From assembly GCA_965645245.1 (NCBI GenBank), contig OZ287077.1:62001-126000 (forward strand): a stretch of DNA of 64,000 bases, read 5' to 3'. The DNA is from Massalongia carnosa (taxonomy: Eukaryota). Each line of letters begins with the position of its first letter. The first letter of the stretch is position 1. The translations under genes were made by a program, and so were the position numbers. The notes under the pieces were generated by a model. The model searched no databases and was not told the origin of the DNA. It saw nothing but the letters and a program-made list of their open reading frames with translations. Shown piece by piece: positions 22,548 to 53,559 of this stretch.

Positions 22548-23316
22548 GTTGTCTTCTTTTCTCTACATCTTCTAAACTCAATAAGCGAGCCCCTTGACCA
22601 TCGTATTGAGTGCCCGTACGTTGAGCTCGTTTTTTTTTTCGTGTATTGGCTGCTAAAAGCTCCGTATTAGTACGATTCAAGACAATACGATCAGCCATAG
22701 CAAGTCTAGCTGCTTTAAGGGTTTTTGGTAGAAGAGTAAGCTTAGGGGAATCGAGAGTCTGATGGCGAAATAGTGATATAAGCTCCCCAAATTCTGAGAC
22801 TTGTTCTATGTTTCCTGGTGTTGGTGGTATTTGGCCTGAAAGATAACGCGTTTGAATAGGAGTACTAGCGTCAGGTAGAGTGTCATCGTTCGTATGAGGC
22901 TTAGCTGATATTTTGTCAAAGACAGCGGAAGGATTGTATGGAATAAGTCCAGTAGCTCGCCATGCTGATTGTATATTTCGAGCAGTGATACCCTGTTGCC
23001 TAGCTTTTTGTATTAAAGAAATGAAATCAGCCTTGTCGATATTGTAGGTTGTAAACCGTGTTTTCTCAGCTAGCAACGTTTTATAGTTTTGTTTTAAAGG
23101 GTCAAATACCCCAACATCAAGAGGCTGTAATAAGTGTGTTGAGTGTGCTGATAGACACAGACAAATTATTTTATGTTCCCGGGTAAATCGGATAAATTCA
23201 GTCGACACATGAGATGCATGCCCGTCAACAATTAACATTCGATATTCACCACGGAGGTAAGCTCTTGTTGTTGGCTCAAAACAGTCACGCATCCACTTCA
23301 TACAGAGCTTGTTATC

Positions 23317-24346
23317 TGTAATACGGATGGCGCTAGAGGGATACGTGATCGCCTATGGCGGTTGCGGGATTAACTAGCGTGGACCATGCCGTAGTACGAA
23401 GTCGCATAAGCCGTCGAGGCTGACACACTGCCATCTTACCCCGAAACTTCGGAGTTATTGTTATCACGTTCTTGACTACTTACAGATCAAACACCTGTCG
23501 AGGCCGTGGTGGTAGATTGCCATGGAGTGTAAGGCGGACTCTTGTGGAGACGCCAAGGAACTCTATATGGGATCTACTGGCCTACTCGGAGCTACTGGAT
23601 CTCTTGATGGTTCAAGAGAGGTAGCAGGAGGCACGGCTCGCTGGACGCAGCTTGAGCTAGGCTCCCCGGTGTAAACTTCAGCTTCAACCTTTATTACTAC
23701 GTTGGTAGTGATGTCGGCTGAATGAACCTACATGACCTCGTTGTCTAGACCTTGTGTCTAGAGGCAGGTCCGCAGTGTAGCGAGGTATTCAGTCGGAGGT
23801 AACCTTCCATCACTAGGTAGTGGTGACGGCGAAATGAAGCTACATAGCCTAAGGCATGTAGTGAGGGATCTAGCCGGGGGTAGAATTGTTCTACCTTGCA
23901 AGGGAAGATCTAGAAGGCTGCTCGAGGCTGACTAGATGATCCAGCGAACGCCGAGTTCGTGGATGGATCCTGAGGGATGGTTGGATGTAATGCGATAAAG
24001 TCGGATGTGGATTGCAAGGCTGTAATGCTCGCAAGACTCCCAAGGCTTGCAAGGCTCCTAAGGTTCCAAGGCTCCCAAGGCTATAGGCTTGGGGTGAGTA
24101 GGATAAATATCAGAACGAATCTTGTAGTATTCGTTAGCAATTAGTCTTTATTCTATGAACAACCTACGTTTGGGTCTCGGACGAGATCTCTTGGTCTAAG
24201 CACTTCCACATCCATTAGTTCTTTGGATCACGTATACTCTCGGAGACTAGCACGTAGTAGCTATCTTCCTCCTCTCACGCTGAGCATTTCCCCTTTCGAG
24301 ATCAGTGTCGCTCGTGATAAACTTACTGGTCTCGTAGCCCATTACA
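23317..24346. repeat. ~1.03-kb solo LTR, family D copy 2, opposite orientation
   Basis: Reverse complement of 21519-22547; TSD TTATC at 23312-23316 and 24347-24351; removal restores GWTDNKL. Confidence 0.9.
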
Positions 24347-26210
24347 TTATCAGTCCAGCCGTTTTCACTTAGTGAAACACGAGCACCCGGTTCCATATTA
24401 CTAGGATACCAATCTTCTTTCCATCTCTTACCCTTTAAAATAACAAATAACGGTAATCGACGACTAGTGGTACCAATAGCTTCAATGAGGTACGCCCATT
24501 CCCGATTACCAGCTTGATTTATGAATGCCTGTTTCCGTTATTTTGAAAATACCAGCTTTGAACTCCCCGCAATACCCATCATATAACCGTTTTCATCCAT
24601 GTTGTATGTATCCTCGTCCAATATACCATGTTGGGCCTTAATAGACAGATACAGATCGAACCACTGCTGTATTGAATCCCGATTTTGAGCTAAATACCGT
24701 TCTTGATCAAGCGTACGGCTATATTTTGACTGTAGTATAGGATGACGGTTGAGGAAGTTTTCTGACCAGTTATTGCCCAGTTCTTTAAAATCCTGTTTGG
24801 CTCGTAATAATTCTTCTGCCATTTCGCGTAACTGCGCTATTCTAGGCGGAAATCCCCAAGACTGAAGTTGTAGCACCCAACTCTGAAGAGATCCTTCCTC
24901 GGGCGTTAACCTCTGCTTTGAGGTAACGTACGATACCTGGTCCTGGCGACCGTTTGTCAAATTATAGGATAACTAATCCTAAACATTAGTGGTAACTCAG
25001 GATGATATATCCGAAGGGTTATTCCGGCCCGATTAGACACGTGGCCTCCCCCCTTAGATAGATTCCCACTTTTACACATCCTCCACAATACAATCAACAT
25101 CTACCCAATTCCCTGATTATGCCTTTTGACCCTTATATATTTGACAACTCATCCCTCACTGGGCTCCGGAAATAACTACATGACTAATCACTTAAATTCC
25201 GAGTCCTGTAAAAAGACGTCGACATTGAAAGGAATGAAGCAACTTTCCTTAAAGGTTGGATATCGTGCCGAAGTATGACTACCACAATGACTACCACATT
25301 ACGTGCTTTGCTAATCAATATTAGTTTGAAGCAAAAAGACAAGAGGCTTAACTCTCAACGGGCGTAGACTAAAAAAGGATGATTTCACGCCTCAATTGCT
25401 TCGTATGATTATTGCTCTTGGCTACCGTTACGAAGTGTCGCCAATGTCGAATTGCAAAGAGCGTTCAACTGTCTGCTCGATAATGTACAGTTTCCTTCAC
25501 CATCGACAATCAAGAATCGCTTGATGACCGGAAGTCAAGAGATTATTCCGCTTTTGCTCGAGAGGCTACCTAGGGGCAGTTTAAAGGTCTCTCTGGCTTT
25601 GGATTGTTGGTCGTCATTTAATCGTCAAGGTTATCTGGCCATCAATGCTTACTTCATTGACGATAAATGGAATTATCACGAAGTGCTTCTTGCCTTCGAA
25701 CACGTTGAAGGCTCACACACGGTAATAAAACTTGCTGAAGTATTGAACAGCGTTTTAATTAGACATTCTATTGAAGATCGTGTTTTTGCATTAACCACGG
25801 ACAGTGCATCTAATAACACAACGATGGTAGATAAGTTGCGACGAATGATACGAAGCAATCGAGCCTTGGCACTTCTACACACTGATGCTAATGAGATACA
25901 GCGAGTGTCTTGTTTATCGCATGTAATTCAACTTGCCGTGAAACAGCTACTTGGGTGTATTCACATTAATCCCAAAAATGCCGATTTCAAAACTAGCTGG
26001 GATGATAAGCAAGATAGACGGGATTTCGAAAACACGACACCTTGAGTTCCCCTTACGCTAGCTAAGGCAAGATTTATTTTGTGGTAGTCTTTGTGGTAGT
26101 CATTCTAAATTTTGATTAGGTTCGAGCATTAGCTGTTTACATTAACAATAGCAATTTACGTAAGGAGAACTTCTACGCTGTTCAACGAGCATTGAATGAC
26201 GAAGAGAGAC

Positions 26211-31497: not shown

Positions 31498-31796
31498 GAG
31501 ACGCACTGGAAACTCGGTCAGCGGTACAGTACTTAAGCTTTTTCAAGATGTAAATACTCGATGGGACTCCACATGTCACATGTTAATTCGAGCGCTCAAG
31601 TTGCGACAAGCGCTGAATAGATATCATGATAAACATGAAGCCGAGTATTTGAGATTGCATTACGTGGAATGGTCACAGATAGAATATCTTATCGATTCAA
31701 CGAAGCTATTCTGCGTCTTCACAAAGATGATTGGTCAATCAAAGCAACCGACCATTTATCAGGTGTTCGAGATCTACAATAAGCTATTCGATCATC

Positions 31797-34381
31797 TGGA
31801 CACACCCCTTCCGGCTATCTAGACACCCTACACAAAATTCTAGGGGTAGGGCTGGACCCCTCCCTAAACCTCATTAGGAAGCCATCTTCCTCGATCAGGA
31901 TAAGTGACGTAAATTCTTCATTTTCTCATCTCAATTTTCAGTTTCCTGATCCTACATTCTGGATCAATCATGCCTCTATTACCTCCCGCCGACAGGCAGT
32001 CTTTCGAAACTCTAGAAGACTGTCTATTCTGCCTGAAACGAAATGCCGGCCCTGAGGGATACGCCGTTGTCCTGCATCGTACCAAGAAATCAAAGCTGGG
32101 AATTCGTCGAAAAGCGTGGATCATCTGCGATCGAGGTCGCAAGGCCAGACCGCAAGGCGAAGAACGATGTCACAGTAGCCGTAGACGAATTGAGTGTCCC
32201 TTATCCTGCATCGCTACCTTCGTGAACGACGTCGCCTGGCATTTGGAAGTAGTCAAACCGGAACATAATCATGAAGCTAGCTTGAGTGGAGCACATCCCG
32301 CGCATCGAAGAATCGCCTTGATTGAGCATAAGGAGGAGATTTCTCGTCAATTGACTGTACAAACCAAACCGGCCAACGTGCTGTCGAGTCTTCGTATTGG
32401 AGATCCGACTCCGAATTCGGTCAGATGGGATGAGAATGGCAATCCTTAAGTCGTCAATCCGATGTTTATCAGTCGAGACATCTACAACTTTCGAGCTCAA
32501 TTGCGACGAAATGCTTTGGGCTCATTGACTCCGATACAGAGTCTGGTTCAGGAGTTTGACAAGGGCGACTGGGTATAGGAGTTGCAGACAAATGATGAGA
32601 ATCAGGTGAGTTTGACAAGGACAGGACAACTGAAATTGCAGACTAATGACGAGAACCAATCAGATCATCAAATTTTTTTTCAGTAAATGCAGTACTCAGA
32701 CTCTTTTGAAGGCAAATCCGGAAGTTTTAGTGATGGATTGCACCTACAAAACCAACAGATTCAAAATGCCTTTGTTGATCATCGGCGGACAGACCGCATT
32801 GCATACTACGTTCTATGTTGCCTTCTGCTTTATGCATGAGGAGACAAATGAGTCTTACATCTGGGCCATGACTCGTTTGAAAGTCTTGTACTCGCAGCTA
32901 GAACTTCCTTCTCCAACGACGACAGTCACCGACATGGATAGAGGTTTGATGTCGGCAATTGAGCTGGTTTTTCCATCTACCAGTCATTTATTGTGTATCT
33001 GGCACATCAATAAGAATGTCCTAGCTCATTGCAAGAAATCATTCAGTACTGAGGCATGGGAAGTCTTTTACGGACGATAGAAATCACTTATTAAGGCTGA
33101 TTCCGAGCAGAATTTTGAAGAGCTGTGGGGACAGTTTCGAATCACATACAACCGTACACATGCTAATTTGGTGAAGTATCTTAATGCCACCTACATTTCT
33201 TTTCGTCAGAGATTTGTAAAGTGCTGGACTGACCGAGTGAGGCATTTCGAGACAACGACTACTTCGCGAGGTGAGGGCGGACATGCTGTATTGAAAAGGC
33301 AGCTGGGAACCTCAAATAGTGACTTAAAAGCAGTCGTAGATGGCCTCGCCTTGCTACTAACCAATGAGCTTCATAATCACCTCATCGCCATAAATTCGGC
33401 TAAGGATCGCTATCCTACCGACTTGCGCAAACCGATTTTCCAACGTTTGGCGAATCGGGTCACCACGTTTGCACTTCGAAAAATTCTTGGTCAGTACAAT
33501 TTGTTGGTTGATCAACCAACGGCGATCAGGGCCTGCACCGAGGTCTTTACTACTGTCACCGGCCTGCCCTGTAGTCACAGAATTCAGGAACGACTGTACG
33601 ATGACGGTGTTTTGTTGTTGGAGGATTTCCATCCTCATTGGAGGTTGGTTTTGATCAAACATTGTTGAATTCAACTAATTCTAAATCTAGATTTGAAAGA
33701 GACCTTCCAGCTGATGATAATGATCCCTTGCTGGCGGTGCAGGATCCCGCTGTCGTGCGACCTCGCGGACGCCCTCGAGGTTCCGAAAACAGAAGATAAC
33801 AAGTCTTTGAAGCTTCCACCCTGCGAGAACCTTCCTTATTCGAACGGATTGAGGCGGAAATAGCTGATCTACAAAGCGGGGAGGTGGCTCCGGACGTGGA
33901 AGCTGTCGTACATCGAGCTGATCCAGCTCCAGGGCGGGGACGCGGGCGGGGGGTACGAGCACGAGGACAGGGACAGCGACAGCGACAGGAATCGGGACAG
34001 GGACAGGAACAGGGACGGGGAAGAGGGCGGAGACGAGGTAGGGCATCTCGGGCAAGGGGCGCTGCTACAAATCAAGAAGGGGCGATACCGAATGAGGTTT
34101 AGTGGCATGAAATCAGAGTCTGATTCATGAAGATGATGCCAATCGACTCCATTTCATCAAGGCAATTGCTGTCCATGAGAGATGTGCACATACTTTTCAA
34201 TTCAAATTTTGAACGTGGGCGAATATTTTCAGTCGCTTATCTTAATGAGGTTTAGGGAGGGGTCCAGCCCTACCCCTAGAATTTTTTTGTGTGGGGTGTC
34301 TAGATAGCCGGAAGGGGTGTGTCTAGGTAGCCGGAGAGGGTGTGTCTAGGTAGCGGATGGGGTGTCCATATATCAGTACCC
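31797..34381 (+). mobile_element. Mutator-like element 1 (degenerate; outer part of left TIR missing)
   Basis: Inverted repeats ~31797-31880 and ~34240-34381 with internal tagacacacc subrepeats; right end resembles the MULE-2 terminus. Confidence 0.88.
31970..34102 (+). pseudogene. MULE transposase with nonsense codons; introns 32606-32663 and ~33644-33689
   Basis: FAR1-like N-terminus, VMDCTYKTN, TDMDRGL, LCIWH, TTSRGEGGH, GLPCSH; colinear with the MULE-2 protein. Confidence 0.9.
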
Positions 34382-34469: not shown

Positions 34470-36469
34470 CCGCGGCGTAGATCAGTATGATAGAGTAGAT
34501 AAAGCAAGCCGTCCTATGGTGAGTATGCTTGATAGTTCTTGTTTCAAAGTGCTCTTTTTAAACGAGCTCTTAGACCTCGTCCACGTTTTTAGAGAATTTT
34601 TGTAACAATCTTGCCGACATAGGAATAGATCCAGCTCCTTATGGTACTCATTCATTTCGAAGAGGAGGTGTACAACCTCTTTCGAGTGAAAAACGATGGA
34701 TCATACGCAAATTATGTGATTGGGGTGGATAGTCTCAAAGTTATGATACTTTTATTGGAATTTGCCGAGATACCTGAATAATATTTGCGACCGAGGTTCT
34801 TTTGCCTCCTGCTTACTAATTTCCAGATTAGGCAATCATATGCTATATGCAAAAAGCTTCAGATATCGGCACGACTTCGGCAACTACGAGGAGGCAAATG
34901 TATGCAGCAAGAATGCTACATTTCGGAGGCAATTCAGCTGTTCATGATCACTGAGTGTCTCGGTGTCTCAGGTCAGCAGTGAGGTGTATTTTGCCCAGCT
35001 GAAAAGGTTCAAAGGAAGCAGGTTCATGCATTTGATATAGGCCGAGATGGAGGCCCTCAAGCAGTATAAAGAGACGGTGATTCCCCATGTAATTTAGCTA
35101 TTCAGTCGTTCAGAATTCAGTGCAGCAGATAGCTAAATTTGGAGTATCTTCACTGGAAATACGGAGTACCTGCATCACGTTTGCCAAGCACTTCTCTTTG
35201 CTTATCCTTGATAGCCCTAGACCCTTTTCTCCTGCATCCCGCTGCCGTATGCCTGGTTGATTTTTTGTTCAACAACTTTGACAATCGTTCGTTATTTAAT
35301 GAATTAGAATGACGATCTTACAAGACGACGAGATGATTTCATGAATCCGGGAAGCACAGATCGGAGTTAAATGTTCTTATTGTGGTCGAGCTTGCGATTG
35401 TGCATAAAGAACTTATTAAATACTATTCTAGTTCATGAGCTGGAATAATGAAAACCAGGAGGATTATTTCAATCTGTTCTATAATGATAAAAAGTTAAGA
35501 GCTCATTTAAATAAACTAATTTCACCCGAAATCCTACTCCTCATTATTATCCTCCCCTCCCCCCTCCTCTTCACCCTCCTCTTCACTCCTCTCCTCATCA
35601 TTATCCTCCCCCCCCTCCTCTTCACCCTCCTCCTCACTCCTCTCCTCCTCCTCACCTTCCTCCTCTCTCATCTCCTCATCCTCACTGAAAGGATCGGATG
35701 ACACTTCCTCAAAAAGTGGATCATCACTTTCGCCTAGTTTAGTCAAAAGATCGACAGCATCATCCGCCCTTTCGCCTCTACTAGCTATCTAAATTCGATT
35801 AAAACGAGTTCGTTTATAGTGAGCATGTTCGGTTGATTTACTTTTCTATAAGACCATTCACCCAGTATGGCCTCAAAAAGACGAACACAATGCTCTCGTC
35901 GACCTCCAAGAGTCAACTCCTCTTGCGCCACTTTCTATAAACATTAAATATTAGGTCGAGCTCATATAAAACGAGTATAGATTAACGATTTTACTTTGGT
36001 TTTGGCATTTGAAATGATTTGCTTCTCGAACATCTATTGTTCGACCATAGACGCACCATAAGCACATCCGCAAGGCAAGAGATCAACCTTGTCTAAACCC
36101 AACGGAATATTCTCGCCCTTAGGCATCTCCTGCATTCGTTTTAAACGAGCTCATCAGTAACAGATAGGCCCCGTTTGTGTACAGCGTAGATAGCCGGCTT
36201 CCTCCGGTAATTTTCGACGTTACACCATACACTTTTGGTGGTGTTTTGTCCGCCATGCCGGCATTTTGGGACCAATTGTACGATTCTACTCTTGAGGCCG
36301 TTTTTTTGGGCCATTGGCTCCTACGCGGAGGATTATAACGATATACAGTTCAATTGAAGGAATCGGCGCAATGCGTCAAGTCTCTACGGCGAGTAATGGA
36401 TGGAGCAACTGCTCGATCAGCGCCATACGAATCGATCTACGAAAACCTTCGCATGGATCGCGAGACGAC

Positions 36470-36920
36470 ATCTTCGCTGTCTCTACGTTCGACCTACAGT
36501 TCAGCTACGTTCTTGCTGGATGGGAAGGCTCTGCGCATGATGCGCTAGTCCTTAAGGAGGCCGTCTCCTATCATGGATTGAGGCTTCCTCCAGGGAAGTA
36601 CCTCCTTGCGGACGCTGGATACTCTAATACGGAGCACACCTTGGTGCCGTTTCGGGGCACGAGGTATCATCTCAAGGAGCAGAGGCCGGCTTGAGAAAGG
36701 TAAGATCTATAGTCTATATGGTGCTAATGGTCTATAGGTCCCAATCGTCCAAGGAGCTGTTCAATCTCCGCCACTCCTTTCTCCACAACGTCGTCGAACG
36801 GATCTTTAGGATCTTTAAGAGGAGGTTGAAGATTCTACGGAGCGCTCCTGAGTACCCAATATGGTCTCAGGTTCACCTAATCTACGCTCTGACCGCAATA
36901 AATGACTATATACGGAGGAA
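36470..36920 (+). pseudogene. PIF/Harbinger transposase C-terminal fragment
   Basis: YVLAGWEGSAHD, KYLLADAGY, RYHLKE, ELFNLRH...VVERIF..KRR. Confidence 0.88.
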
Positions 36921-38009
36921 GCTGGGCAGGAGGCGCTGGAGACTGGGCTGGGCGCGGAGGAGCTTGACCTTGGCGCACACGAGGGTCAAGAGGCTACAAG
37001 AGAAGGATCTACGTCAACAAGGATGGGCAGACTACGGGATGAAATGGCAGAGAGGATGGGGGACTACGTGGATGTGGTGTTTGCGGGGGAGGATTAGGAT
37101 ATTTTATAGCTCTATAGAAGTTATTGAAGTCATCATAGCCTTTATAATGACCTTTTTGTCTTCCGCGCTCTTGAGACTTTTAAAAACAGTTGCGTTATTG
37201 AGTACACTGGTGAAACGGGGAGACCTTCTCCCAGCAGGCATTCACTACTGGAAGACGGGATCCACAGAGGCTACACAACGTGATGGTCACAATAGAGGTA
37301 CAAATAGTAGGGTCGGGTCAAAGGGTAGACTACATGCTACCCTTTTGAAGTGCTTGATCATTGATCTATATAGAATAGGACAATCCACAACCTAAGCTCT
37401 TCTTCCGTACCTTGCCCATACTACCTGGTATTTTCGGTCTCCGAAATACTTCGGTCACCGAAAGACACGGGTAGATGAGACTAGGCAGGCGAGCTAGGGG
37501 AGGTGAGGCGAGGACGAGGTGCTTAGGGACAGTCCCCCCTCGACCATCCCCCCCCCCCCCCCCTCCCTGTGTAAATCTTTGCTAGTAAACAGCCATTTCA
37601 CTGCTTATCCAGGGTGTGTACAAGCTAGTAATGCAACTGCCAACAGCACATTAAACTCTTTTCGGTTTAAATCGTATGACCTGTTATTGCTACTAATAAT
37701 TACCTCACTCGGTCTGATAAAGCATACCCTCACCCCCACCCTCACCCTCACCCTCACTTACCATTTGCCCTTGCCTATAAGACAATCGGTGCAGAAAATA
37801 TGTGATGAGGTGCGGAAAAAACAATTAGATCGGAAGATTTTGTGCAATCAACAGCGAATACGCAATGACTCTATTGAACAAGGGAGGATGCTCAGATATA
37901 ATAGATTGCGTGCTGGGGGCGACGATGAGGTTGAGGATGAAACAGAAGGTAAAATTCACGATGTTGCAAAGTTATTGCGCTCGGGTCGGCTAATATTGGG
38001 TACAATAGG

Positions 38010-38344
38010 TTTACACGTACGTCTTCACTCCCGCCTCCTTGGCTGCTTTGGCGTTTTCTATGCACAAGCCATGGTCGATTTTCCACTGATTCTGGATTCC
38101 GCTAGCTGCCGCCTTGAGGTGCTGACTGCGTTAAGACTACTGATGGCTTGGGAGACAGTAAGAAGATCATGCCGCCCCATTTTGAGATCTCGCCTTCCTC
38201 GAGGGCTTGAAGCTTGAGAGACTGAGCATTAGGGAGTCTTCTTGAGATGGTCTTGACGGATGAGAATGCGTCTGTGACTAGAAGAGTAACGAGGATCTGA
38301 GAGCCCACTACTCCTATACAGCCAAACACCGCTGCCGTCGTCAT
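38010..38344 (-). pseudogene. Fragment of an NAD(P)-binding Rossmann protein, Fmp52/TIP30-like
   Basis: MTTAAVFGCIGVVGSQIL Rossmann start, TISRR; after a frameshift, GIQNQWKIDHGLCIENAKAAKEAGVKTYV*. Confidence 0.6.
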
Positions 38345-38732
38345 GGTATGAGATCTCTATTCGTAGACTATTTCTGTCTCAAACGGGACGCTTATCAGCA
38401 AGAAACACAAGTGAGATAGGATAGATTTGAAAAACGGTCGGGGGGGGACTGTCCCTAAGCATCTCGCAACACGAATATCGCTCGTATCGAATCTTCGATG
38501 CAGTTTCCTTCGCTAATTCTTGCATCGTCGAAACGTCACCCGAAACGCATTGCGTTAACGAATGACTCGTCACTCGCATGTCATTCGTTGTCTCGATCGA
38601 CTCACATGCCGGGCATCGATGCTGCCAGTATTACAAATGTCGCGTGAATCTTTCAATTTCCGTGCTTTCTTGACTGTTCTGCATTGTTTGACGCTCTCGT
38701 AATCCTCGACGTGCTCGTTGTTGCTCCTCGAA

Positions 38733-41700
38733 TTACCACGACGGTGGTGAATCCTTCGGGGGACTGCTTGCCACATTTGCATGACCTTCGTCCGCTTCTT
38801 CTTCTCGTCTTCGGTTCTGCATGTCATGACATCGTTGACATGACTCTTCATTCGTTTCACATCCCTCGCGGTCTTGACGTCCATCCATATATTCATCCAA
38901 TATGACTCGTTGACATTCGTTTTGTTCCGTCGCCATGATAAACCGTTTCATGGTCTGCCTGGATTCGATGTCTGGAAATATCTCGCTCGATGGCTGCGCC
39001 TCCGATCGAATCATGATGAAAACTTCGCTGATGTCGCCGTCTCGTCCCGCCCGTCCGCTTTCTTGCGCATATTCTTCCATACTGCGCGGGACATCCATGT
39101 GCACCACCACCCGAATGTCCGATAAATCAATCCCCAACCCAAACGCGCTGGTGGCCTCCACCACCCGACGGGTCCCCTGCATCGACCCCTGAAATTTCTC
39201 GTCCTTGTCCGTCGCATGATGATGATATGCGCCGCAATCCAATGCCTGCGCCAATCGCTGCACTTTCGACACCGTGTTGGCGTACACAGTCATCTTTCCG
39301 CTCGCCCGGCTCCGCAACATCTCCGTCAAAAAGTGCATTTGTTGCCTGCCGCTGTTCATCCCCCGCACGATGCGATAACGGATATTGGCGCGACTCGTGC
39401 CGCTGCGAAACATTCGCACCTCGTCGCGTACGAATCCCATTCGACGACACAATTCCATCTCCTGCCAGGGCGGCAACGTTGCCGTCAACAATATCATCTG
39501 CGTTTCTTCCCCGATTAATCGCCCGAATTGCTGCAACTGCGGTCGAAAATCCCATTGTTCGGTCAATGTGACATGGCATTCGTCAATGACAATGCGTTCT
39601 AACTGCTGCATGGCTCGTAATCAGTTGATGAATGTCTGAAAATCTCCCGTCACCGCCGACTCCGGCGTGACCAACAACAACGACGCCGCCTCGGGTGGTC
39701 GACGACTGCTCCACTCCTCGCACGTGATGCCCATGGTCTCGCACCGTCGCCGCATGTCTTGCCACAATGCGATCAACAACAACACCACCACGCTCACCCC
39801 TCCGTGCCCGCACGACGCCGGCAACATGAATGTCATGCTTTTTCCGCCCCCGGTGGGCATCACCGCGATCACGGGGATTTCGCCCGCCATGATCGCCTCA
39901 ATTGTGACCCGTTGCACCCCGCGGAACTGACTGCCGGCCCCCATCAATCGCTCCAACTGTTGTTGAATGTCCACTCCCCGCAACCGATTCCATCGATGCA
40001 TCCGAATCTCTTGATTCTCTCCTTCCCATATCTTCCGGCGTTTTTTTTCATGTTCCGACGACTCGTGCGTCGCCATGGTCGATGCAAATACTAAAAATCG
40101 ATGCCATTCCTGACTGCTTTGACGAAACCGCTGACGCTAGCTGGCCACCTCCCCATTGGCCTCCATAATGCCTCGTGCATATATCATGCCCACCACGTGC
40201 CATCCATGCCCCGCCTGCACTTCCGCAATATCGTTCAACCCATCATCGGCCGTCTCCTCGTTTTCCGTGTCGGCATGAAATGACAAACCCTCTCGCATGT
40301 AATTTCGACTGATGCCAATGACAATCTCCCGATATGCCTGAATGCCCAATGACACGCCCATGCCAATTCGACTCTCGCGTTGCAACACCGTCCGCAGTCG
40401 CTGCGACGTCCATCGTTTGCCATCCGGATCGGACGGCCACATGAACGCTGACACCTGATCTTTCTCCCAAATCGTGACTTCCAATTGTTGCTGAAACGGC
40501 AATACCGACCATATATAATACAGCAACAACTCCCCGATCTCGCGGGGAAAATATCGATGAATCACCTTGACATCTCCTTTCCTCACATATCCTTTATGAT
40601 ATCGGGTCACGTACACCATCAATCCCTGCTCCACGAATATATTGCGTTGCTCTCCTCGCGCCGTGTTGCTGTGTCGACAACTCAATATTTCGGGGCCTCG
40701 TCCGGGCTGTCCGCCGCTCATGTGCATTTACACCAATAATTTCTCGCGAAATTCCATCACCTGCGCCATGTACGTCTCGATTCCCTTGTGATTCCACTGC
40801 ATTTCGGATTTGGGCTGAACGAATCGTCGTTTCACCTCCTCATGATTCGATTTTCGATTGAACAACCACCATTCCCCATCCACCGCGAACTCGTGCCGCT
40901 CGTCATGCTTAAAACTCCATCCTGGCGTGTTTTCGCTGGGGTTATCGTGTAATGCAGTCCACTCGATGCTGGGCACCGCTCTTAATTGGGGAACAAATAA
41001 CAAATCCTCCATCATCAAGCGCCGAGTTTCTGTGATCAGTCCATGAATTATGCTGCGAAACTGTCGCATGCTGAATTGAATATTTTTATACACAATCTGA
41101 TCTCCAATCCAATCAATATGACCGGCACTAGTGGTGTTGTAATGAATATTCAACCCGTACGTGCGTAAATCCAACGTCCATTGCATGGGACTGTGACTGC
41201 CCCGAATCATAAATCGATTCATCATGTCTCGAACTCGTCCCAAACATCCCGTGCCTTCTGTCGCGAACCTCTCCTGTTCCGACTCATTCTCCTCGTCATG
41301 GTCACTGTCATCGCTCAACAACTCCCTCATCTGTGACGCTGAACCCGACGTATCCGCTCGTTCGTCCTCGTCGCTGTTTTCCCATGCATGCTGCACCACC
41401 ATCATGCGTGCCAATTTAGTCATGCGTGACAATATGGGTAGATATCGATCGGGTCCTAACCACCGATCCTCGTCCACTCCCAACACCGCCAATGCGTTCA
41501 CCAATGAACTGTCGTATTCGGTGCGTGTGATCCCTTGATCCAATAACACAATGCAAAAATCCAAACACGATTTATCAACCTGATTCAATCCGGCCTCTTC
41601 ATGAACGGGACGGTCTGTCTTTTCAACATCTGGGATTTCCACCGCTGATGATGTAGATTCGACTTCCTCCCCGGATTCATTGTCTTCCATGATCCTTTCA

Positions 41701-41810
41701 ATGACGGCGCAAAATCGTCTCCAAGCTCGTTTCTGGGCTGGGGTGAATCGATATCGCGGGCTATTCTGGCTACCTTGTGGCCGCGCACGGGCAAAAAAGG
41801 ATATCAGCAT
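38733..41810 (-). pseudogene. Telomere-linked-helicase-like ORF: tyrosine-recombinase-like domain fused to a RecQ helicase, three in-frame stops
   Basis: Track ORFs 40728-41990, 40137-40727, 39621-40076 and 38733-39611 share one frame. Helicase motifs MPTGGGKS, VIDECH, LTATLP, TSAFGLGID, YAQESGRAGRDG and an RQC Cys cluster. Confidence 0.88.
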
Positions 41811-42311
41811 GCAAATTAGGTGGCTGATCAGCTGCTGACAGGTGGGAGTGCTGTCAGCCGTGCGGGAATCAATACCACCAATCGAAGCGTGGCCCACCCA
41901 AATTAGTATGGGGCGGTGGCTCAAGTAAAGTTTTTCCGTCCCCGAACTTTGTCGATTTCTCAACCACTCACGTTCAAAATCCACCTCCAACCACCTCCAC
42001 TACCTCCAACCACCTCCAACCACCTCCTCCAACCACCCCCATACCCGAGAAAGCGGCTGTGACAAGCACGAAAACATGACAATGAAGGCCTAGATGCAGG
42101 CTATTTACGCGTGTGCCTCTCAATTGCTCTCGATGCGAAACGTCATCGCTTCGAGGTTGAAAAAGGTCGACGTGACTGCTTTTGCGACAAATCATTTACA
42201 CTGAACTCGGTAAATTAATTACTTAAAAGAATTCAAGATTATTTATCATGATGATAGCACGTAAATGACTGCACTGTCTTTAGAATGCAGTATGAATGTG
42301 GAATAAATAAA

Positions 42312-44972
42312 GAGTACGGATACATGGACACCCCTTTAGTTACCTAGACACTCCCCTGGGTTACCTAGACACCCCCCGATGATACTCAGACACCCCCCTC
42401 CTAGAATAGGTAAAGATTAAGGGTCATGCCCTACCGCTTACCTGCATCGGGGTAGTGAGGGGGCAATTTCTTTGGCACCTGAAAATTTTTCTTTTTTCGA
42501 ATGTTGGCACACGAAATTCTTCTGCCACTTGAACTTCATCTATCCGATGTCGACCTCTCTACCACCTGGTGGACTCGCTCCTCCTGAAGATGGACAAAGC
42601 TTCGAAAGTTTGGAAGACCTCATTCTTCGCGTCAACGAGCATGCCGGCCGTCAAGGATATGCCGTTGTTTTGGGCCGGACCAAGAAGTCGAAACTCAAGA
42701 TGACGAGAAAGGCTTGGCTGGTCTGCGACCGAGGCAGGAAATCCAATGGACCGACTGGTCAGGATCGGCGACATACAAGCAGCAGACGGATTGAGTGCCC
42801 TTTTTCCTGCGTTGCGAAGCGCGAAAATGAGAATGGAATTTGGTTCTTGGAGGTCATCACACCGGGACATAATCATTCTGCCACACTTGCCGGCGCCCAT
42901 CCTGCATTGAGGAAGCTGGCGATGACATCAGAGGTTAAGAGCGAGATCTCTCGAGCGCTGACAGTGCAGACGGCACCTTCTAGAATTCTTTCAAGTCTCA
43001 GAATTCCTGACCCGATGACTGGAGTCAATCACGAAGATCCCGAAGATCCCGTCATCGTCAATCCAATGTTCAAACCTCGAGACATTTACAATGTCAAGGC
43101 GCAGCTACGTCGCGAAGCCCTCGGTCCATTGACTCCCGTTCAGGCATTGATTCGCGAGTTGGATCAAGGAGATTGGGTATACAATGTGCAGAAGAATCAT
43201 CTCAATCAGATCAGTCATTTATTCTTCATAAAGGGCAGTTCTCAAAGAATTCTGAAGACCAATTACGAGGTGTTGGTGATGGACTGCACATACAAAACGA
43301 ATCGCTACAAAATGCCACTTTTGATTATCAGTGGTCAGACGGCATTACATTCCAACTTCTATGTGGCGTTTTGTTTCATGGCCAAAGAAACGACTTCTGA
43401 TTATACATGGGTTCTGCAGCAATTGCAAGCTTTGTATGTGAATTTGGAGCTTCCTACTCCGACGGTTATCGTCACCGACATGGAAAGAGGTCTGATGTCT
43501 GCAATTGAGACTGTTTTGCCTACAACCAATCATCTGCTTTGTCTTTGGCACATTAACAACAATGTCCTAGTCAATTGTAAGAAGCATTTCGATTCCAAAG
43601 AATCTTGGGATCGATTCTTCGCAGATTGGAAGTCAGTGATATACGCATCTTCGGAAACGGAATTTCGGGAGACATGGGAGCGGTTTAGTCTGCAATATCA
43701 GGGAAATTGCATTGAGTATCTGGACTCCACCTATGTCTCTTCTTTTCGGCATCGCTTTGTCAAGTGCTATACCAATACGATCTTGCATTTCGAGACGACA
43801 ACCACCTCTCGCGGAGAAGGCGGGCATGCGGTTCTGAAACGACAGTTGGGATCCTCATCTGGAGATCTCAAGACAGTGGTGGACGGAATCAATTTGCTGC
43901 TGATCAATGAGCTACATAACTATCTGATCAATCTTGATGAGGCTAAAGTACGACTTCCTTTGAGTCTTCGTAAACCAATCTTTCAAGAAGTGGCACCATA
44001 TATCACCCCATACGCCTTGAGAAAGATACTCCCTCAGTATCTTCGACTCATTGAGAGACCAACAGCCCTGCCGGCCTGCACTCAAACCTTCACGCTGACT
44101 ACCGGTCTTCCATGCAGTCACAAGATTCAGCAACGGCTGTATGAGGGTGGCAGATTGTTGATCGAAGATGTGCATTCACATTGGAGGTAGTACTCAACTT
44201 TCTAACTTTCTAGATTGATGAAGCTGACTTGAAATGTAGATTTGATAGAACTCAAGTTCTGCCTCGCGTCGAGATCGATAATCCCCATCTTCTGATTCAA
44301 GAACCAGAAGTTGCAAGAACTCGAGGGCGTCCACAAGGTGCGGGAAATAGAAGACAGCAAGCATTCGACGCATCCACAAATCGAGAACCATCGCTTTTCG
44401 AACGGGCGGAACCGGAGACGCATTTGGCAGTGCATCGAGCGGACTCGGCACCGGGTCGCGGCCGAGGTGGCAGACGAGGTGGCAGACGAGGAAGACGAGG
44501 GGGGGAAGATGAAGTTACACCAAGGACAACGAGGGTAACGAGGACAGCTACGTCCGGGGGGGCAAAGGCAACGACGAAAGGACGGGCACCGGCAGGGCGG
44601 ACAGGTCGGACAGGTCGGCCAAAGAAGAGGACAGCAACGTCAGAACGGGCAACAAGCGAAGAAGATGACTTGATCATTGTAGATAGTCCAAATGAGGTTT
44701 AGCTCGTATCAAATCACTGTCTGGTTTGCAAAGACAGTGCCAATCGACTCCGTTTCAATCATTCTCGATCGGCTGCTAACATTCGAAAAAAGGAAAAAAT
44801 TTCAGGTGCCAAAGAAATTGCCCCCTCACTACCCCGATGCAGGTAAGCGGTAGGGCATGACCCTTAATCTTTACCTATTCTAGGAGGGGGGTGTCTGAGT
44901 ATCATCGGGGGGTGTCTAGGTAACCCAGGGGAGTGTCTAGGTAACTAAAGGGGTGTCCATGTATCCGTACTC
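42312..44972 (+). mobile_element. Intact Mutator-like element 2 (2661 bp), ~190-bp TIRs, 8-bp TSD TAAATAAA
   Basis: GAGTACGGATACATGGACACCC...GGGTGTCCATGTATCCGTACTC; TIRs ~42312-42504 and ~44778-44972; TSD at 42304-42311 and 44973-44980. Confidence 0.96.
42547..44702 (+). CDS. MULE transposase, one intron 44187-44239
   Basis: Uninterrupted FAR1-MULE DDE ORF; the GTAGTA...GCTGAC...TAG intron joins HWR-FD in frame. Confidence 0.92.
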
Positions 44973-45174
44973 TAAATAAATTAACCTAACAATTCAACTC
45001 CAAACATGTCCAAAATTCAACCTTCGTGCTCCATTTCCTATCGAAAAAGACGGTGTAAACACTGGAATCACTGCTGTAAAAACACCCATCACCTCCAAAA
45101 AGTGCGGGAAAATACGAAAAGCAAATGGTTCAACGAAAACCTCAAACAAACTCCAAAAATGCACAAAAAATCAT

Positions 45175-48246: not shown

Positions 48247-51200
48247 ATGCCAGATAAAGACTTGTGCCTATTATCTCTCGATGGAGGTGGAGTGCGAGGG
48301 CTATCGTCACTCGCAATCCTCAAGCGACTGATGGAGATCATCAATCCGGATGCGCCGCCGAAGCCATGCGAGTATTTCAACATGATCGGAGGGACAAGTA
48401 CCGGTGGATTGATTGCTATCATGCTAGGTCGCCTTGAGATGAACATTGATGAATGTATCGATGCTTATGTCGCTTTGTTCGATCAAGTGTTTCAAAAAAA
48501 GTGGCATCGTGTCACAATAAACGGACACGTACAAGGGAGATTCGACACAGAAGAGCTGGAACGGTCGATTCGAGAAATCGTAAAGCGGAAGGACAAGGCA
48601 GGCGAAAATGCTCTCCTCAAAGGATCGGAGAATCAGCATTGCAAAGTGTCAGTGCTTTGGAAGTTGCATTTACAGGTACTATTCTAGTGATATTAACGAA
48701 GGCTAGATTTGTATGCGCCCTGAGCAAAGAGACTGCCGACACAGTCCTTTTCACATCGTATCCTTCTCGAGGATCCTCAGATATGTACCATAAGACACGA
48801 ATTTGGGAGGCAGCTCGAGCCACATCTGCCGCATCATCCTTCTTTGCTCCAATCAGAATTGGCCAGTTTGAAGAAGAATTTGTCGACGGGGCTGTGGGGG
48901 CTAACAATCCTGTCGCACAGCTTTGGAACGAGGCCAAAAGTGTGTGGTCAGATGAAGCGCTTGAGGGAAACATTAAATGCCTGATATCTATCGGTACCGG
49001 TGTTCCATCCTTGGATTCTTATGGCTCAAGCCCCTTCGAGATTGCAAAAATATTGAAAGACATTGCGACAGAGACAGAAAAAACAGCGGAGTCTTTTCAT
49101 CGAGCACATTCAAATCTCGACGATGGGAATCGCTATTTTCGTTTCAATGTTTCTCATGGGCTTGAGAGTATTGGACTCGAAGATGGAGCACAGAAGAACA
49201 AGATTATGGCCGCCACAACCCGCTATGTGGCTTCAGAAAGCGTGATGAAACAAATGAAGCTCTGCGGAAATAACCTTTCCACACGAGAATGTACGTTAAT
49301 GTTTCCTTGATAATCTTTGATTTACTTAATCTTTGAATAGATTCTGGTCCATACAAAGTGCCATTCAGTTTGAAAGGCCAACCCCTTGTACCCAAATTCG
49401 TAGCTCGTGATCAGGAAATGAATGACCTTAAGGAAAACCTTTTCCCCAAGCCAACTCGTGAGACTCGCCGGAAGGTGTTCGTTTTGCACGGACTTGGCGG
49501 CTCCGGCAAGACTCAGCTAGCAATCGAGTTCGCTCAAATATCACAGAAGATTTTCAGTTCAATTTTTTGGCTAAACGGCGATAGTAAGGAAAGTGTACGT
49601 CAAAGTATTGCTCAGATTGGTCGAAAATTGCCCAAAGATAAAGTTCCGGATTTTTGTAGAAGATTCTCCAAAACATCCCCTGAAGAGCTAACTGAAATCA
49701 TCAATAATATTCTATTTTGGTTCAATCAACCGGAGAACAACCGATGGCTTCTCATTTTCGATAACGTCGATCGTGATAATTCGCTTGAGGCAGATGATCC
49801 TCAATCATATGATGTAAAAGAATTTTTCCCAGAAGCCAATCACGGCTCTATTTTAATCACAAGCCGATTACGACAGCTGCGACAATATGGGCATGACCGG
49901 CAACTTGGGAGAATGAGCGATCTACAAGGAGCAGAAGTATTACGATACAGGATAGGACGATCAATCGAAGGTAATGAAAAGCAAGCAACAGTCTTAGTCC
50001 AATTCACTAAGCAAGCATTATATAGGCCTTGACAGAATCGTCGAGAAAGTGGGTGGTCTTCCACTTGCACTTGCTCATGCAGGCTCCTATATTCACGGAA
50101 CGGCTACAAGTGTGAACGACTATATTCGATACTATGAAGAGACTTGGGAGAAGCTTCACGACAACAAAGTCACGCGATTAAAAGATTATCCCCGTAACAT
50201 TTTGTCTACGTACACCATTTCTTACGAATATGTGCGAAGCACTGACGCGAGCGCTGCAAAGTTGCTTGATCTGTTTGCATATCTCGATCACTCAGATTTA
50301 TGGTATTCTTTATTCACGCCTGTACTCCGCGAAAGCATGGTCCCAAAAGAGACATTACCCACCTGGTTTTTATGTAGCATGAAAACGGAGTTTGACTTTA
50401 CACAGAAGATTCGAATACTGCTGGACTACTCTTTGATAGAAACACGATATGAGATCTCATCGTATGCGATTCATCCAATTATACATGACTGGTGTTTTCA
50501 CTTGAGTCGGACCTCTAAGGACGATATAGCTTCTTTAGCAGTTTCTGTAATCGGTTCGGCATGTCATTCCACTGACAGTTCAGCAAACTGGCTGTATCGA
50601 AAACGACTGCTTGATCATTGTAGCCATGTTCACTTCTGCATTGGGAAAAGAACTCAAAACCTTGAAAGCGATGAGAGATGGAAACTATATTTTTCATATC
50701 ATGCTATTGGTAATTTTTCAAGCGAACAAGGCAAGATGAAAGAAGCCGAAGACATGTACTTGCGAGCATTGACAGGATACGAAAAGGCCTGGGGTCCTGA
50801 GCACACATCGACACTCAACACAGTCAACAATCTGGGACTTCTGTACTCGGATCAAGGCAAGATGAAAGAAGCCGAAGACATGTACTTGCGAGCATTGACA
50901 GGATACGAAAAGGCCTGGGGTCCTGAGCACACATCGACACTCGATACAGTCCACAATCTGGGAAACCTGTACAAGAATCAAGGCAAGATGAAAGAAGCCG
51001 AAGACATGTACTTGCGAGCATTGACAGGATACGAAAAGGCCTGGGGTCCTGAGCACACATCGACACTCGATACAGTCCACAATCTGGGAAACCTGTACAA
51101 GAATCAAGGCAAGATGAAAGAAGCCGAAGACATGTACTTGCGAGCATTGACAGGATACGAAAAGGCCTGGGGTCCTGAGCACACATCGACACTCGATACA

Positions 51201-52271
51201 GTCAACAATCTGGGAAACCTGTACAAGAATCAAGGCAAGATGAAAGAAGCCGAAGACATGTACTTGCGAGCATTGACAGGATACGAAAAGGCCTGGGGTC
51301 CTGAGCACACATCGACACTCAACACAGTCAACAATCTGGGAGTTCTGTACAAGCATCAAGGCAAGATGAAAGAAGCCGAAGACATGTACTTGCGAGCATT
51401 GACAGGAAAGGAAAAGGCCTGGGGTCCTGAGCACACATCGACACTCGATACAGTCAACAATCTGGGAGCTCTGTACTCGGATCAAGGCAAGATGAAAGAA
51501 GCCGAAGACATGTACTTGCGAGCATTGACAGGATACGAAAAGGCCTGGGGTCCTGAGCACACATCGACACTCGATACAGTCAACAATCTGGGACTTCTGT
51601 ACAAGCATCAAGGCAAGATGAAAGAAGCCGAAGACATGTACTTGCGAGCATTGACAGGAAAGGAAAAGGCCTGGGGTCCTGAGCACACATCGACACTCAA
51701 CACAGTCAACAATATTGGACTTCTGTACAAGCATCAAGGCAAGATGAAAGAAGCCGAAGACATGTACTTGCGAGCATTGACAGGATACGAAAAGGCCTGG
51801 GGTCCTGAGCACACATCGACACTCGATACAGTCAACAATCTGGGAAACCTGTACTCGGATCAAGGCAAGATGAAAGAAGCCGAAGACATGTACTTGCGAG
51901 CATTGACAGGATACGAAAAGGCCTGGGGTCCTGAGCACACATCGACACTCAACACAGTCTACAATCTGGGACTTCTGTACAAGCATCAAGGCAAGATGAA
52001 AGAAGCCGGAGACATGTACTTGCGAGCATTGACAGGAAAGGAAAAGGCCTGGGGTCCTGAGCACACATCGACACTCGATACAGTCAACAATCTGGGAAAC
52101 CTGTACTCGGTCCAAGGCAAGATGAAAGAAGCCGAAGACATGTACTTGCGAGCATTGACAGGATACGAAAAGGCCTGGGGTCCTGAGCACACATCGACAC
52201 TCAACACAGTCAACAATCTGGGAGCTCTGTACTCGGACCAAGGCAAGATGAAAGAAGCCGAAGACATGTAA
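48247..52271 (+). CDS. Fungal NLR: patatin-like phospholipase / NB-ARC / TPR repeats; introns 48648-48706, 49291-49340, 49971-50025
   Basis: LSLDGGGVRG, GTSTG, FVDGA patatin motifs; GLGGSGKT P-loop, WLLIFDNVD, ILITSR, GGLPLAL; all three introns restore the frame. Confidence 0.93.
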
Positions 52272-52403
52272 TTGCGAGCATTGACAGGATACGAAAAGGC
52301 CTGGGGTCCTGAGCACACATCGACACTCAACACAGTCAACAATCTGGGGCTTCTGTACAAGCATCAAGGCAAGATGAAAGAAGCCGAAGACATGTACTTG
52401 CGA
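50727..52403 (+). repeat. 13 full plus one partial 126-bp (42-aa) TPR repeats
   Basis: caaggcaagatgaaagaagcc recurs every 126 bp from 50727 to 52365; TAC>TAA stop in unit 13. Confidence 0.97.
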
Positions 52404-53559
52404 TGCTTCTTGAAGAGTTAGAGATCAAGGTATGTTCCTCTTCTCCGAATCAAAGAATTTCTATCACTAAACTCCTCTCATAATAGATTGTAGAAGCACC
52501 GTAATGAAGAGTAACGTACTTTGTTTGTGCCCAGTGCGAGTTAACCAAAAAACGAAAGTGTCTTTTCATCTACCGTCACTCAGGTAACACCCCCGATTTC
52601 GGAATCAGTGACAATTCTTCGCCTTGCACAAACTCAGGAGGAGTTCCAAGAAATGCTTGATAGTGTTAAATCTATTGGTCCGATCTCCTCAGAAGTCCCT
52701 GCCCCTTCAGGCCTTACGAATCCAGACTTACTCTTATCCGACCCACCTTCTCAAGCCGAACTTCTGACAACCGCAACCTCCTCTCCTTCAACAAGCACTT
52801 CCCAAGAATATTACCTCAAGAGACACCTCACTGCCAGACATATTCATCTAAAACCCACAATATCTTCTCACATACCTCCCAATCCTTCTCCCATAGTAAC
52901 ACCAAAGTCATACTGTGACTTAACATAAGGAGAACCCATCTGGCAATCAATCTGTCAACCAAGTAATTTCGGGTAAATGGTTTTACCGAGGGACTCGGCG
53001 GGTAGACTCGATAGAATTTTCTCATCTTTTCCTGAGAACAATAATCCATTCATGTATCAATTAATTTATCAACACTTATTCAACCCGATCTGGGGCGTAA
53101 ACTCCATTCATTACTAGATGACAGTAGATCTAGATCCTAACACAATCTTATACTCAGACATATTTATGAACACCGGCACTACCCATCTGCATCTACACGA
53201 CATCCGAATCTCTATGATGTAGAATCTGGAGCTATCGCACGATTCAGAATAGGCTAGGCTTTGGATCTTAATGATGCGTCTTTGATCCTCAAAATCTCAC
53301 AGTATGTTATAATATTTCCAGATGTTACTGTTCAAGCATTCTGGAAGCTGGAACAAGCCACAGCGACCAGCTATGAGACGAGAGCAATAGTCTCCTATGT
53401 GAACATTAGGATGGTGAAAGGGATGCTTGTTACGCTACAATACATAGAATACTAGGCAGACCAACCTAGCCACTCTTATGTGTATAAAGATAAATTCAAA
53501 GAAAAAGTCTCTCGAGGTCATCAATATAATTAGGAAGATTCGCCTTGTCTCCCTCTATG

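Follow-up and report, generated by a model that had tools for sequence, protein, structure and literature searches.

Introduction

Telomere-linked helicase (TLH) genes have been on record since at least 1998, from fission yeast, rice blast, smut fungi, Fusarium, Botrytis and a choanoflagellate. TLH proteins are described as carrying two N-terminal C2H2 motifs, a ‘TLH domain’ of ~250 residues right before the helicase, and RecQ motifs (10.1101/2024.02.27.582403; 10.1101/2022.03.07.483234). Here we analyse a locus of this kind on the minus strand of a 64,000-nucleotide stretch of Massalongia carnosa DNA (GenBank assembly GCA_965645245.1, contig OZ287077.1, positions 62,001 to 126,000), called the window below, in which positions are counted from the first nucleotide. 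A first-pass annotation of the window had proposed a mobile element encoding a tyrosine recombinase fused to a RecQ helicase. We conclude, with a probability of about 0.8, that the locus is a decayed TLH copy, truncated at both ends, of a family whose intact members consist of a zinc finger, a helical region, a domain of the tyrosine-recombinase/topoisomerase IB fold and a RecQ helicase, and that in such members this domain would cut and rejoin DNA.

In Magnaporthe oryzae, the TLH gene reads toward the telomere and has helicase-associated repeats on both sides, and truncated copies exist; the upstream repeat block (HAR-C) contains the reverse complement of the telomere motif (PMC1635262). The domain preceding the helicase has been treated as a TLH-specific motif, and the function of TLH is given as undetermined in the Fusarium preprint and likewise as unknown in the M. 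oryzae study (10.1101/2024.02.27.582403; PMC1635262).

Results

A TLH copy truncated at both ends

Four minus-strand open reading frames (ORFs; 41999-40728, 40727-40137, 40136-39621 and 39620-38733) all share one frame, and the breaks between them consist of three nonsense codons only. The first-pass annotation had described this interrupted frame correctly; a fourth stop is now added. The copy and its in-frame stops are as follows.

~38467..41939, minus strand: TLH-family copy, delimited by tblastn and equivalent to residues ~300-1447 of ~1550-residue relatives
40728-40730, minus strand: in-frame TAA, where 26 of 32 homologues have leucine
40137-40139, minus strand: in-frame TAG, where 29 of 32 homologues have lysine or arginine
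39621-39623, minus strand: in-frame TGA, where 30 of 32 homologues have arginine
38733-38735, minus strand: in-frame TAA, the fourth stop, where 15 of 32 homologues have glutamate

The TAA at 38733-38735 is a copy-specific nonsense codon rather than the end of the gene, because same-frame tblastn homology extends beyond it to ~38467. The window was also compared with contigs from four public sequencing runs. In contigs carrying other copies, the codon at 38733-38735 is a sense codon in all four runs and that at 40137-40139 in three, run X5 showing no difference at the latter position.

The extent of the copy was defined by tblastn with relatives. Residues 314-1447 of P0074 (1550 residues) align with window positions 41807-38466 and residues 288-1334 of P0007 with 41939-38799, and residues 306-1431 of P0003 are also covered. 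The first-pass span of 38427-42169 therefore shrinks to ~38467-41939. The earlier proposal of an internal deletion does not hold either: the alignment is unbroken, with no large internal gap, and a sensitive search across the 64-kb window, including the DNA beyond a Mutator-like insertion described below, found no trace of the N-terminal ~300 residues of the relatives, from which we conclude that the copy is truncated at both ends. What is missing is the first ~300 codons (the OrsD/C2H2 zinc finger) and the last ~100. This is the only TLH copy in the transposon-rich window. Repeat-induced point mutation is not suggested by the dinucleotide indices at the customary thresholds (TpA/ApT 0.29; (CpA+TpG)/(ApC+GpT) 1.39; GC 0.52). 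The window locus, an unremarkable degenerate copy from a family already described, has no function of its own.

The C-terminal half is a RecQ helicase

The identification of the C-terminal half as a RecQ helicase, also made in the first pass, is borne out by Pfam and by matches in the PDB.

38820..39932, minus strand: RecQ-type superfamily 2 helicase core with TGGGKS, DECH, TAT and QESGRAGR motifs, broken by the TGA at 39621-39623

Pfam assigns DEAD (1.5e-07 and 2.1e-06) and Helicase_C (2.2e-15) to the last two ORFs. With X placed at the stops, the helicase part matches RECQ1 (E 8.9e-33) and bacterial RecQ (2e-32 and 3.6e-32), followed by RECQ5, BLM and WRN, so that RecQ-family matches range from 8.9e-33 to 1e-21, while DEAD-box RNA helicases reach only ~1e-12.

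Relatives belong to the TLH family

The region preceding the helicase has 430 relatives at E ≤ 0.001. Those that are named come mostly from Pleosporales and lichen fungi, where their labels are either RecQ helicase or hypothetical protein. When 1.84 billion representatives were searched with a profile, 1212 matched at E ≤ 1e-30 and 7517 at E ≤ 0.001; the latter figure is inflated because the profile also spans the widespread OrsD finger, and only the former is a fair guide. Intact members encode a single protein of ~1500-1700 residues. Full-length relatives of ~1400-1700 residues consist of an N-terminal PF12013 domain (OrsD, a C2H2-like zinc finger), a long region free of Pfam matches, and DEAD plus Helicase_C. 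Of this architecture, the window copy retains only the TLH domain and the RecQ helicase.

Two sets of names connect these relatives to described TLH proteins. One member is named tlh3 [Beauveria brongniartii], and its recombinase-like region alone matches an Alternaria relative (P0074) with E 2.3e-41 and a Fusarium oxysporum relative (P0330) with E 2.1e-48. The P0031 cluster contains entries named ‘Telomere-associated helicase [Pyrenophora tritici-repentis]’. Judged by its architecture and by similarity to proteins with these names, the window copy is a member of the known TLH family, and the ‘TLH domain’ of the described family corresponds to the recombinase-like part. The labels met among the relatives (RecQ, ‘Bloom syndrome protein-like’, tlh3, ‘Telomere-associated helicase’) agree with the earlier statement that such proteins are usually annotated only as helicases.

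The domain before the helicase carries a conserved catalytic set

~40086..41093, minus strand: tyrosine-recombinase/topoisomerase IB-fold catalytic domain (‘TLH domain’), mapped from P0245 residues 15-369, which align with the catalytic domains of Xer, Cre and integrases, and broken by the TAA at 40728-40730
40698..40700, minus strand: Arg434 codon, box I GGQPGRGPEIL; aligns with XerD R148; arginine in 109 of 110 homologues
40593..40595, minus strand: Lys469 codon, YHKG, in a beta-hairpin turn; equivalent to K176; lysine in 110 of 110
40566-40568, minus strand: Lys478 codon, second conserved lysine; equivalent to K185; lysine in 105 of 110
40329..40331, minus strand: Arg557 codon, box II AYREI; aligns with XerD R247; arginine in 109 of 110
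40206..40208, minus strand: His598 codon, QAGH; aligns with XerD H270; histidine in 106 of 110
40179..40181, minus strand: Tyr607 codon, GMIYARG, candidate nucleophile nine residues past the histidine; aligns with XerD Y279; tyrosine in 106 of 110

Conservation was assessed in an alignment of 110 sequences with 28-52% identity to the reference, P0245, whose numbering is used for the family. The counts for further positions are 110 for both E144 and R189; R141, R274, H329 and Y338 of the reference stand at the box I arginine, the box II arginine, the histidine and the tyrosine listed above. In a second set of 39 sequences, which takes in the tlh3 protein, relatives from Fusarium, Colletotrichum, Trichoderma, Hortaea and Aspergillus, and the window copy itself, K176, K185, R274, H329 and Y338 are invariant and R141 is present in at least 90%. 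The window copy has the whole set (R434, K469, K478, R557, H598 and Y607). The motifs are not chance features of one sequence, because their residues are kept in 106-110 of the 110 homologues.

These results uphold most of what the first-pass annotation had read from the letters. The motifs that it quoted (GGQPGRGPEIL, YHK, QAYREI, and QAGH with a tyrosine nine residues on) are all present, and the five-residue Arg-Lys-Arg-His-Tyr set that it proposed to follow in homologues is kept, at 105-110 of 110 for each position and invariant or at least 90% in the 39. The recombinase domain that it placed at 40137-40740 stands as to type, by fold, profile-profile comparison and conservation; its extent is larger, ~40086-41093, and crosses the first stop.

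The domain is predicted to adopt the tyrosine-recombinase/topoisomerase IB fold

A first AlphaFold2 model, built from 16 sequences, was poor (mean predicted local distance difference test, pLDDT, 49.8); Foldseek returned nothing significant for this shallow model and a VIA search only middling Z scores (XerH 6.5). A model of P0245 built from 79 sequences reached a pLDDT of 83.4 and a predicted template modelling score of 0.82. When this model was compared with 48,161 PDB chains by VIA-align, the first 30 rows all belonged to the DNA breaking-rejoining superfamily, as expected if the recombinase fold foreseen by the first-pass annotation is real. The best match was the archaeal Xer 4a8e (Z 11.2, root mean square deviation 3.5, 174 residues aligned), followed by XerH (9.8), XerA (9.8), Cre (9.7), Brujita integrase (9.2), bacterial topoisomerase IB (9.2), XerD (8.3-8.9), IntI (8.8) and Tn1549 Int (8.0). 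Lower among the 30 were poxvirus and human topoisomerase I, SSV1 Int, Flp, Ndc10, the lambda, HP1 and P2 integrases, TelK and TelA; SroF/MrpR was also among them. The first unrelated chain stood at rank 31 with Z 4.9.

Foldseek gave the same picture, with 26 of the 27 matches listed down to rank 35 coming from this superfamily and XerH in the lead (probability 1.00, E 0.03). The ESM Atlas's own model of P0245 has TM scores of 0.53-0.58 to integrases, XerC and XerD, and an Atlas feature search with a second member led to integrase, NDC10_II (0.84-0.86) and protelomerase (0.83) clusters, to be read as leads only. In the P0245 model, R141 lies just before a short helix, K176 in the turn between strands 167-174 and 185-189, R274 within helix 270-285, H329 after helix 315-326 and Y338 before helix 348-366. 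Cre and XerD have this layout of residues. The assignment of the modelled domain to the tyrosine-recombinase/topoisomerase IB fold is well supported.

Profile-profile comparison places the catalytic residues in register

The 110-sequence domain alignment was compared by hhalign with a profile of 81 sequences, in which XerD, XerC, Cre and lambda Int were joined by 77 XerD-like integrases taken from viral contigs. This single comparison scored 30.9 (P = E = 0.0012) over 163 columns, covering XerD 113-285. Domain and template residues are paired as R141/R148, E144/E, HKG/GKG, R274/R247, H329/H270 and Y338/Y279, and K185 lies two residues off XerD K172. The four named recombinases all share R148, R247 and Y279. 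Controls (n = 83) scored 14.4 for the reversed profile, at most 20.2 in 40 column shuffles and at most 21.2 in 40 block shuffles, and two other parts of the same proteins scored 13.5 (helicase part) and 13.4 (upstream conserved part); the true score thus lies ~10 bits above all of them. Relatives of lambda Int from viral contigs were all 99-100% identical and could not be used as a second integrase profile. With a profile of the four reference proteins alone, the best local match paired QAGHS...Y with XerD LLGHS...Y.

Relatives are multi-copy, telomere-adjacent and tandemly arrayed

We surveyed 77 related loci from metagenome contigs. Seven of these end in telomere repeats, always downstream on the gene's strand and 0.5-4.5 kb past the stop codon; the repeats are TTAGGG in six and TGTAGGG/TTTAGGG in one. 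Same-strand tandem copies occur in L006, L025, L033, L049/L057, L055 and L069. In five of 16 loci examined, the start codon is directly preceded by telomere-like 7- to 29-mers of the C strand, opposite in orientation to the terminal repeats:

L062:5041-5266, L075:1301-1534, L073:2278-2493, L074:651-746 and L049:1570-1634: upstream inverted telomere-like repeats (CCATAAC, CCCGTAACCCACGA)

Since the upstream C-strand repeats oppose the downstream TTAGGG tract, the gene is bracketed by inverted telomere-like arrays, and the layout of the relatives matches that described for M. oryzae. In L055, one of the seven, telomere repeats are joined inside the TLH ORF (L055:10676-10766), within the His...Tyr motif of the recombinase-like domain; this terminal copy, which follows a complete copy upstream, has been cut short and then healed by the addition of telomere repeats.

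Copy number is high. Identical proteins occur on many contigs (P0418 on 35, P0446 on 45), one Colletotrichum genome has seven family proteins on seven Mb-size contigs, and several diverged copies are present in the public runs, where a single position has as many as 10 contigs. An ORF of at least 1400 residues is present in only 30 of the 77 loci. No conserved second gene accompanies the related loci, which are flanked by further TLH copies, transposons or host genes. The dispersal of homologues, which the first-pass annotation had left to be examined, is that of a multi-copy family, adjacent to telomeres and tandemly arrayed.

Signs of mobility were looked for in several ways. Among the related loci compared, no shared termini, target duplications or target-site signature were found. 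In one subfamily, homology between the diverged copies L049 and L073/L074/L075 ends sharply, within 7 nt of the stop codon. An apparent empty site, in which a contig of run X6 (a lichen metagenome) skips 38468-41996 and joins 38467 to 41997, consists of one joint with a 20-nt side in low-complexity sequence and was judged unreliable. A single contig of run X5, at low depth, links 41920 back to 37526 across 10 other letters; this could reflect a tandem or circular arrangement, or a second copy of the inverted-repeat element described below, placed on the fragment's other side. Neither the weak joint, nor the X5 contig, nor the sharp end in L049 is decisive for mobility.

Surroundings of the copy within the window

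Two elements flank the TLH copy.

37515..38466, strand not assigned: 952-bp element with 31-nt inverted repeats, adjoining the 3' truncation at precisely the position where TLH homology ends
42302..44982, plus strand: Mutator-like element with 196-nt terminal inverted repeats (97% complementary) and an open 589-residue frame of the MULE/FAR1/SWIM type

The 952-bp element is 40-90 times deeper than its flanks in public runs, from which we take it to be a high-copy repeat resembling a miniature inverted-repeat transposable element. Each of its inverted repeats contains one TTAGGG unit, and the element holds a poly-C run; Rfam found no RNA family in 36500-38600. Within it, at 37726-37757, lie five ACCCTC units (TGAGGG-like on the TLH strand, ~710 nt downstream and in telomere-type orientation), which none of 100 shuffles matched; given their position inside a high-copy element, their meaning is ambiguous. 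The Mutator-like element begins ~360 bp past the 5' truncation point and is a neighbour, separate from the TLH gene. In every one of the four runs, contigs pass directly from 42303 to 44973, the two sides overlapping by 8 nt, indicating that other copies or strains lack this insertion.

Elsewhere, the window contains copia, gypsy, pogo and Harbinger debris and a patatin/TPR gene. Two copia-type long terminal repeat (LTR) elements (14373-17795 and 60041-63463; 3.4 kb, ~417-nt LTRs, opposite orientation) are 100% identical over 3423 nt, which suggests very recent activity or duplication. A DNA transposon bounded by terminal inverted repeats at 21516-24349 has a DDE_1 (pogo/Tc1-type) frame at 22543-23352, another at 31796-34326 has terminal inverted repeats of 42-46 nt, and a Harbinger-type DDE_Tnp_4 transposase fragment lies at 36296-36694 (E 2.9e-07). 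At 48453-52538, a TPR_10 array lies after a patatin-like phospholipase; its ~14 repeats, each of 126 nt, show 92-97% identity to one another, and the whole resembles an NLR-like gene whose repeats are highly homogenised.

Discussion

We have assigned the locus to the TLH family and the domain before its helicase to the tyrosine-recombinase/topoisomerase IB superfamily. Several observations weigh against this assignment. Sequence searches at ordinary sensitivity do not detect it: Pfam finds no match in the two N-terminal ORFs of the window, Phage_integrase (PF00589) is absent among the 25 families listed for 52 members, phmmer and hmmsearch against the PDB give no recombinase match, and there is no integrase among the 25 families listed from PHROGs. 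The hhalign comparison with the four-sequence profile of XerD, XerC, Cre and lambda Int is not significant (probability 0.2), and no Foldseek match reaches an E-value of 0.001 or below. The first histidine of the HxxR box is not conserved, as it is likewise not in topoisomerase IB; a variable acidic insertion between R274 and H329 lengthens the spacing from arginine to histidine; and Y338 falls in a stretch of the model with low confidence (residues 330-347). The family link is made through named relatives (tlh3, ‘Telomere-associated helicase’), not through the sequences of M. oryzae TLH1 or S. pombe Tlh1/2. Finally, the 64-kb window has no telomere repeat that would link this copy to a telomere.

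In intact copies, the domain would cut and rejoin DNA through a 3'-phosphotyrosyl link at the tyrosine that aligns with XerD Y279, with the fused helicase supplying unwinding or branch migration. Telomere-like repeats flanking the gene, or subtelomeric repeats, would be likely substrates, and such recombination could together spread and homogenise TLH units among chromosome ends.

How far these units act on their own behalf is a separate matter. TLH genes may be the recombinase genes of an unrecognised class of selfish element, with a single ORF encoding recombinase plus RecQ, homing to chromosome ends by cutting and rejoining telomere-like repeats, and spreading in tandem from end to end, possibly via circular or telomere-capped linear intermediates; we offer this tentatively and would put the odds somewhat against it. 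Such a reading would also explain the induction of TLH when telomeres fail, and the stability of TLH-free ends in M. oryzae, the many pseudogenes and the presence or absence of genes among strains lean toward a dispensable or selfish element.

A more specific version, close to that of the first-pass annotation, is that TLH units are autonomous Crypton-type tyrosine-recombinase transposons that carry a helicase and excise as circles, the window locus being a defective copy. The recombinase fold with an intact catalytic set, the multi-copy state (35 contigs for P0418, 45 for P0446, seven in Colletotrichum) and the sharp end of L049 homology at the stop codon would all suit a transposon, and same-strand tandems, which integration of circles would give, and the contig joining 41920 to 37526 point the same way. 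Tandems and spread among chromosome ends also arise, however, by ordinary subtelomeric recombination, and the comparisons yielded neither shared termini nor target duplications nor an empty site that could be relied on. Intact copies are grouped at telomeres and not scattered, and the window copy lacks both ends but has no internal deletion. We consider autonomous transposition of this kind unlikely.

TLH could instead be a non-mobile host or domesticated gene for telomere maintenance, whose recombinase-fold domain acts on telomeric DNA, to resolve or process ends or junctions when telomerase fails. The gene is oriented toward the telomere in all seven telomere-bearing loci, the upstream telomere-like repeats of opposite orientation in five of 16 loci recall HAR-C of M. 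oryzae (PMC1635262), and protelomerases and topoisomerase IB are among the fold matches (Atlas lead 0.83). TLH genes are also reported to be induced in telomerase-negative S. pombe and Ustilago maydis. A maintenance role sits poorly with the many pseudogene copies (ORFs of at least 1400 residues in 30 of 77 loci), with the report that M. oryzae chromosome ends lacking TLH are stably maintained (PMC1635262) and with the variation in presence or absence among Botrytis cinerea strains (10.1101/2022.03.07.483234), and we regard it as doubtful.

It is less probable still that the recombinase fold serves only to bind DNA, like that of Ndc10, and does not cleave strands. Ndc10 is among the fold matches (Z 6.0-6.4; Atlas NDC10_II 0.84-0.86), the first histidine of HxxR is not conserved and the tyrosine segment is modelled at low confidence; nevertheless, catalytic Xer, Cre and integrases outscore Ndc10, and retention of the arginines, lysine, histidine and tyrosine in 106-110 of 110 sequences with just 30-50% identity would be unexpected for a purely structural role. 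That the resemblance is due to chance and the domain has an unrelated fold, as the lack of Pfam, PDB-hmmsearch and PHROG matches and the shallow model (pLDDT 50) without a significant Foldseek match might have suggested, is scarcely credible when each of the first 30 among 48,161 chains comes from a single superfamily, the hhalign score exceeds those of 83 controls by 10 bits, and two independent predictors (AlphaFold2 and ESM Atlas) agree.

Comparison with known systems

The closest described system is the TLH family itself (M. oryzae TLH1, S. pombe tlh1/tlh2, U. maydis UTASa, F. oxysporum TLH and B. cinerea BcTLH), which has the same order of C2H2/OrsD, a domain of ~250 residues and RecQ. 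The relatives of the window copy likewise lie beside telomeres with the gene reading toward the end, are flanked on either side by tandem repeats, and number truncated copies among them. The window copy differs in being truncated, nonsense-mutated and without a telomere repeat in 64 kb, and the present account differs in assigning the middle domain to the tyrosine-recombinase/topoisomerase IB fold. A search of the full-text literature found no paper that ties TLH genes or RecQ fusions to tyrosine recombinases, prior mention in subscription papers, supplements or domain databases being possible, and the two preprints that use ‘TLH domain’ for telomere-linked helicases do not mention a recombinase (10.1101/2024.02.27.582403; 10.1101/2022.03.07.483234). 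The recombinase-fold assignment of the TLH domain appears to be new. The fold and the Arg-Lys-Arg-His-Tyr set point to a concrete and testable chemical activity for TLH genes, with a single residue to mutate, and recast subtelomeric helicase families as possible recombinase-driven elements.

With tyrosine recombinases (XerA/C/D/H, Cre, the lambda, HP1, P2 and Brujita integrases, IntI and Tn1549 Int), the TLH domain shares the catalytic fold, with Z scores of 5.8-11.2 over 134-196 aligned residues. In XerD, R148, R247, H270 and Y279 align with the arginines, histidine and tyrosine of the TLH domain, the lysine is likewise in a hairpin, and the spacing from histidine to tyrosine is nine. The TLH domain differs from these bacterial, archaeal and phage enzymes in falling below Pfam and HMMER detection, in not conserving the first HxxR histidine and in having an acidic insertion before the histidine; the TLH protein as a whole differs in its fused RecQ helicase and zinc finger and in being eukaryotic and subtelomeric. 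Type IB topoisomerases and protelomerases have the fold of the same superfamily (topoisomerase IB Z 6.3-9.2; TelK 5.3; TelA 4.7-4.9) and an Arg-Lys-Arg-His-Tyr set without the first histidine, and protelomerases (TelK, TelA and ResT) act at DNA ends. The likeness of the TLH domain to them is weaker than to Xer and Cre, and there is no evidence that TLH forms hairpin ends or relaxes DNA. Ndc10, a subunit of the kinetochore complex CBF3, is likewise eukaryotic, its fold is recombinase-like (Z 6.0-6.4) and it is known to be non-catalytic, whereas the TLH domain keeps the catalytic set.

Among mobile elements, Crypton, DIRS/Ngaro and Starship captains resemble TLH in being eukaryotic multi-copy units with an enzyme of the tyrosine-recombinase type. 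No DUF3435 or Crypton Pfam match was found in the window ORFs or among the 25 families listed for 52 members. None of these elements has been described with a fused helicase, and TLH units lack defined termini; in keeping with the first-pass statement on this point, ‘helicase’ and ‘RecQ’ occur 0 times in PMC3212892 (Crypton) and PMC13465315. Pfam showed no Helitron_like_N or PIF1 match in the window or the relatives examined. Helitron, KolobokH and AcademH do encode a helicase within the repeated element (PMC10799480), pairing it with a Rep/HUH or DDE nuclease, whereas TLH pairs a RecQ-type helicase with the tyrosine-recombinase fold. If the proposed activity is real, this helicase-fused type would join the few known eukaryotic tyrosine-recombinase systems.

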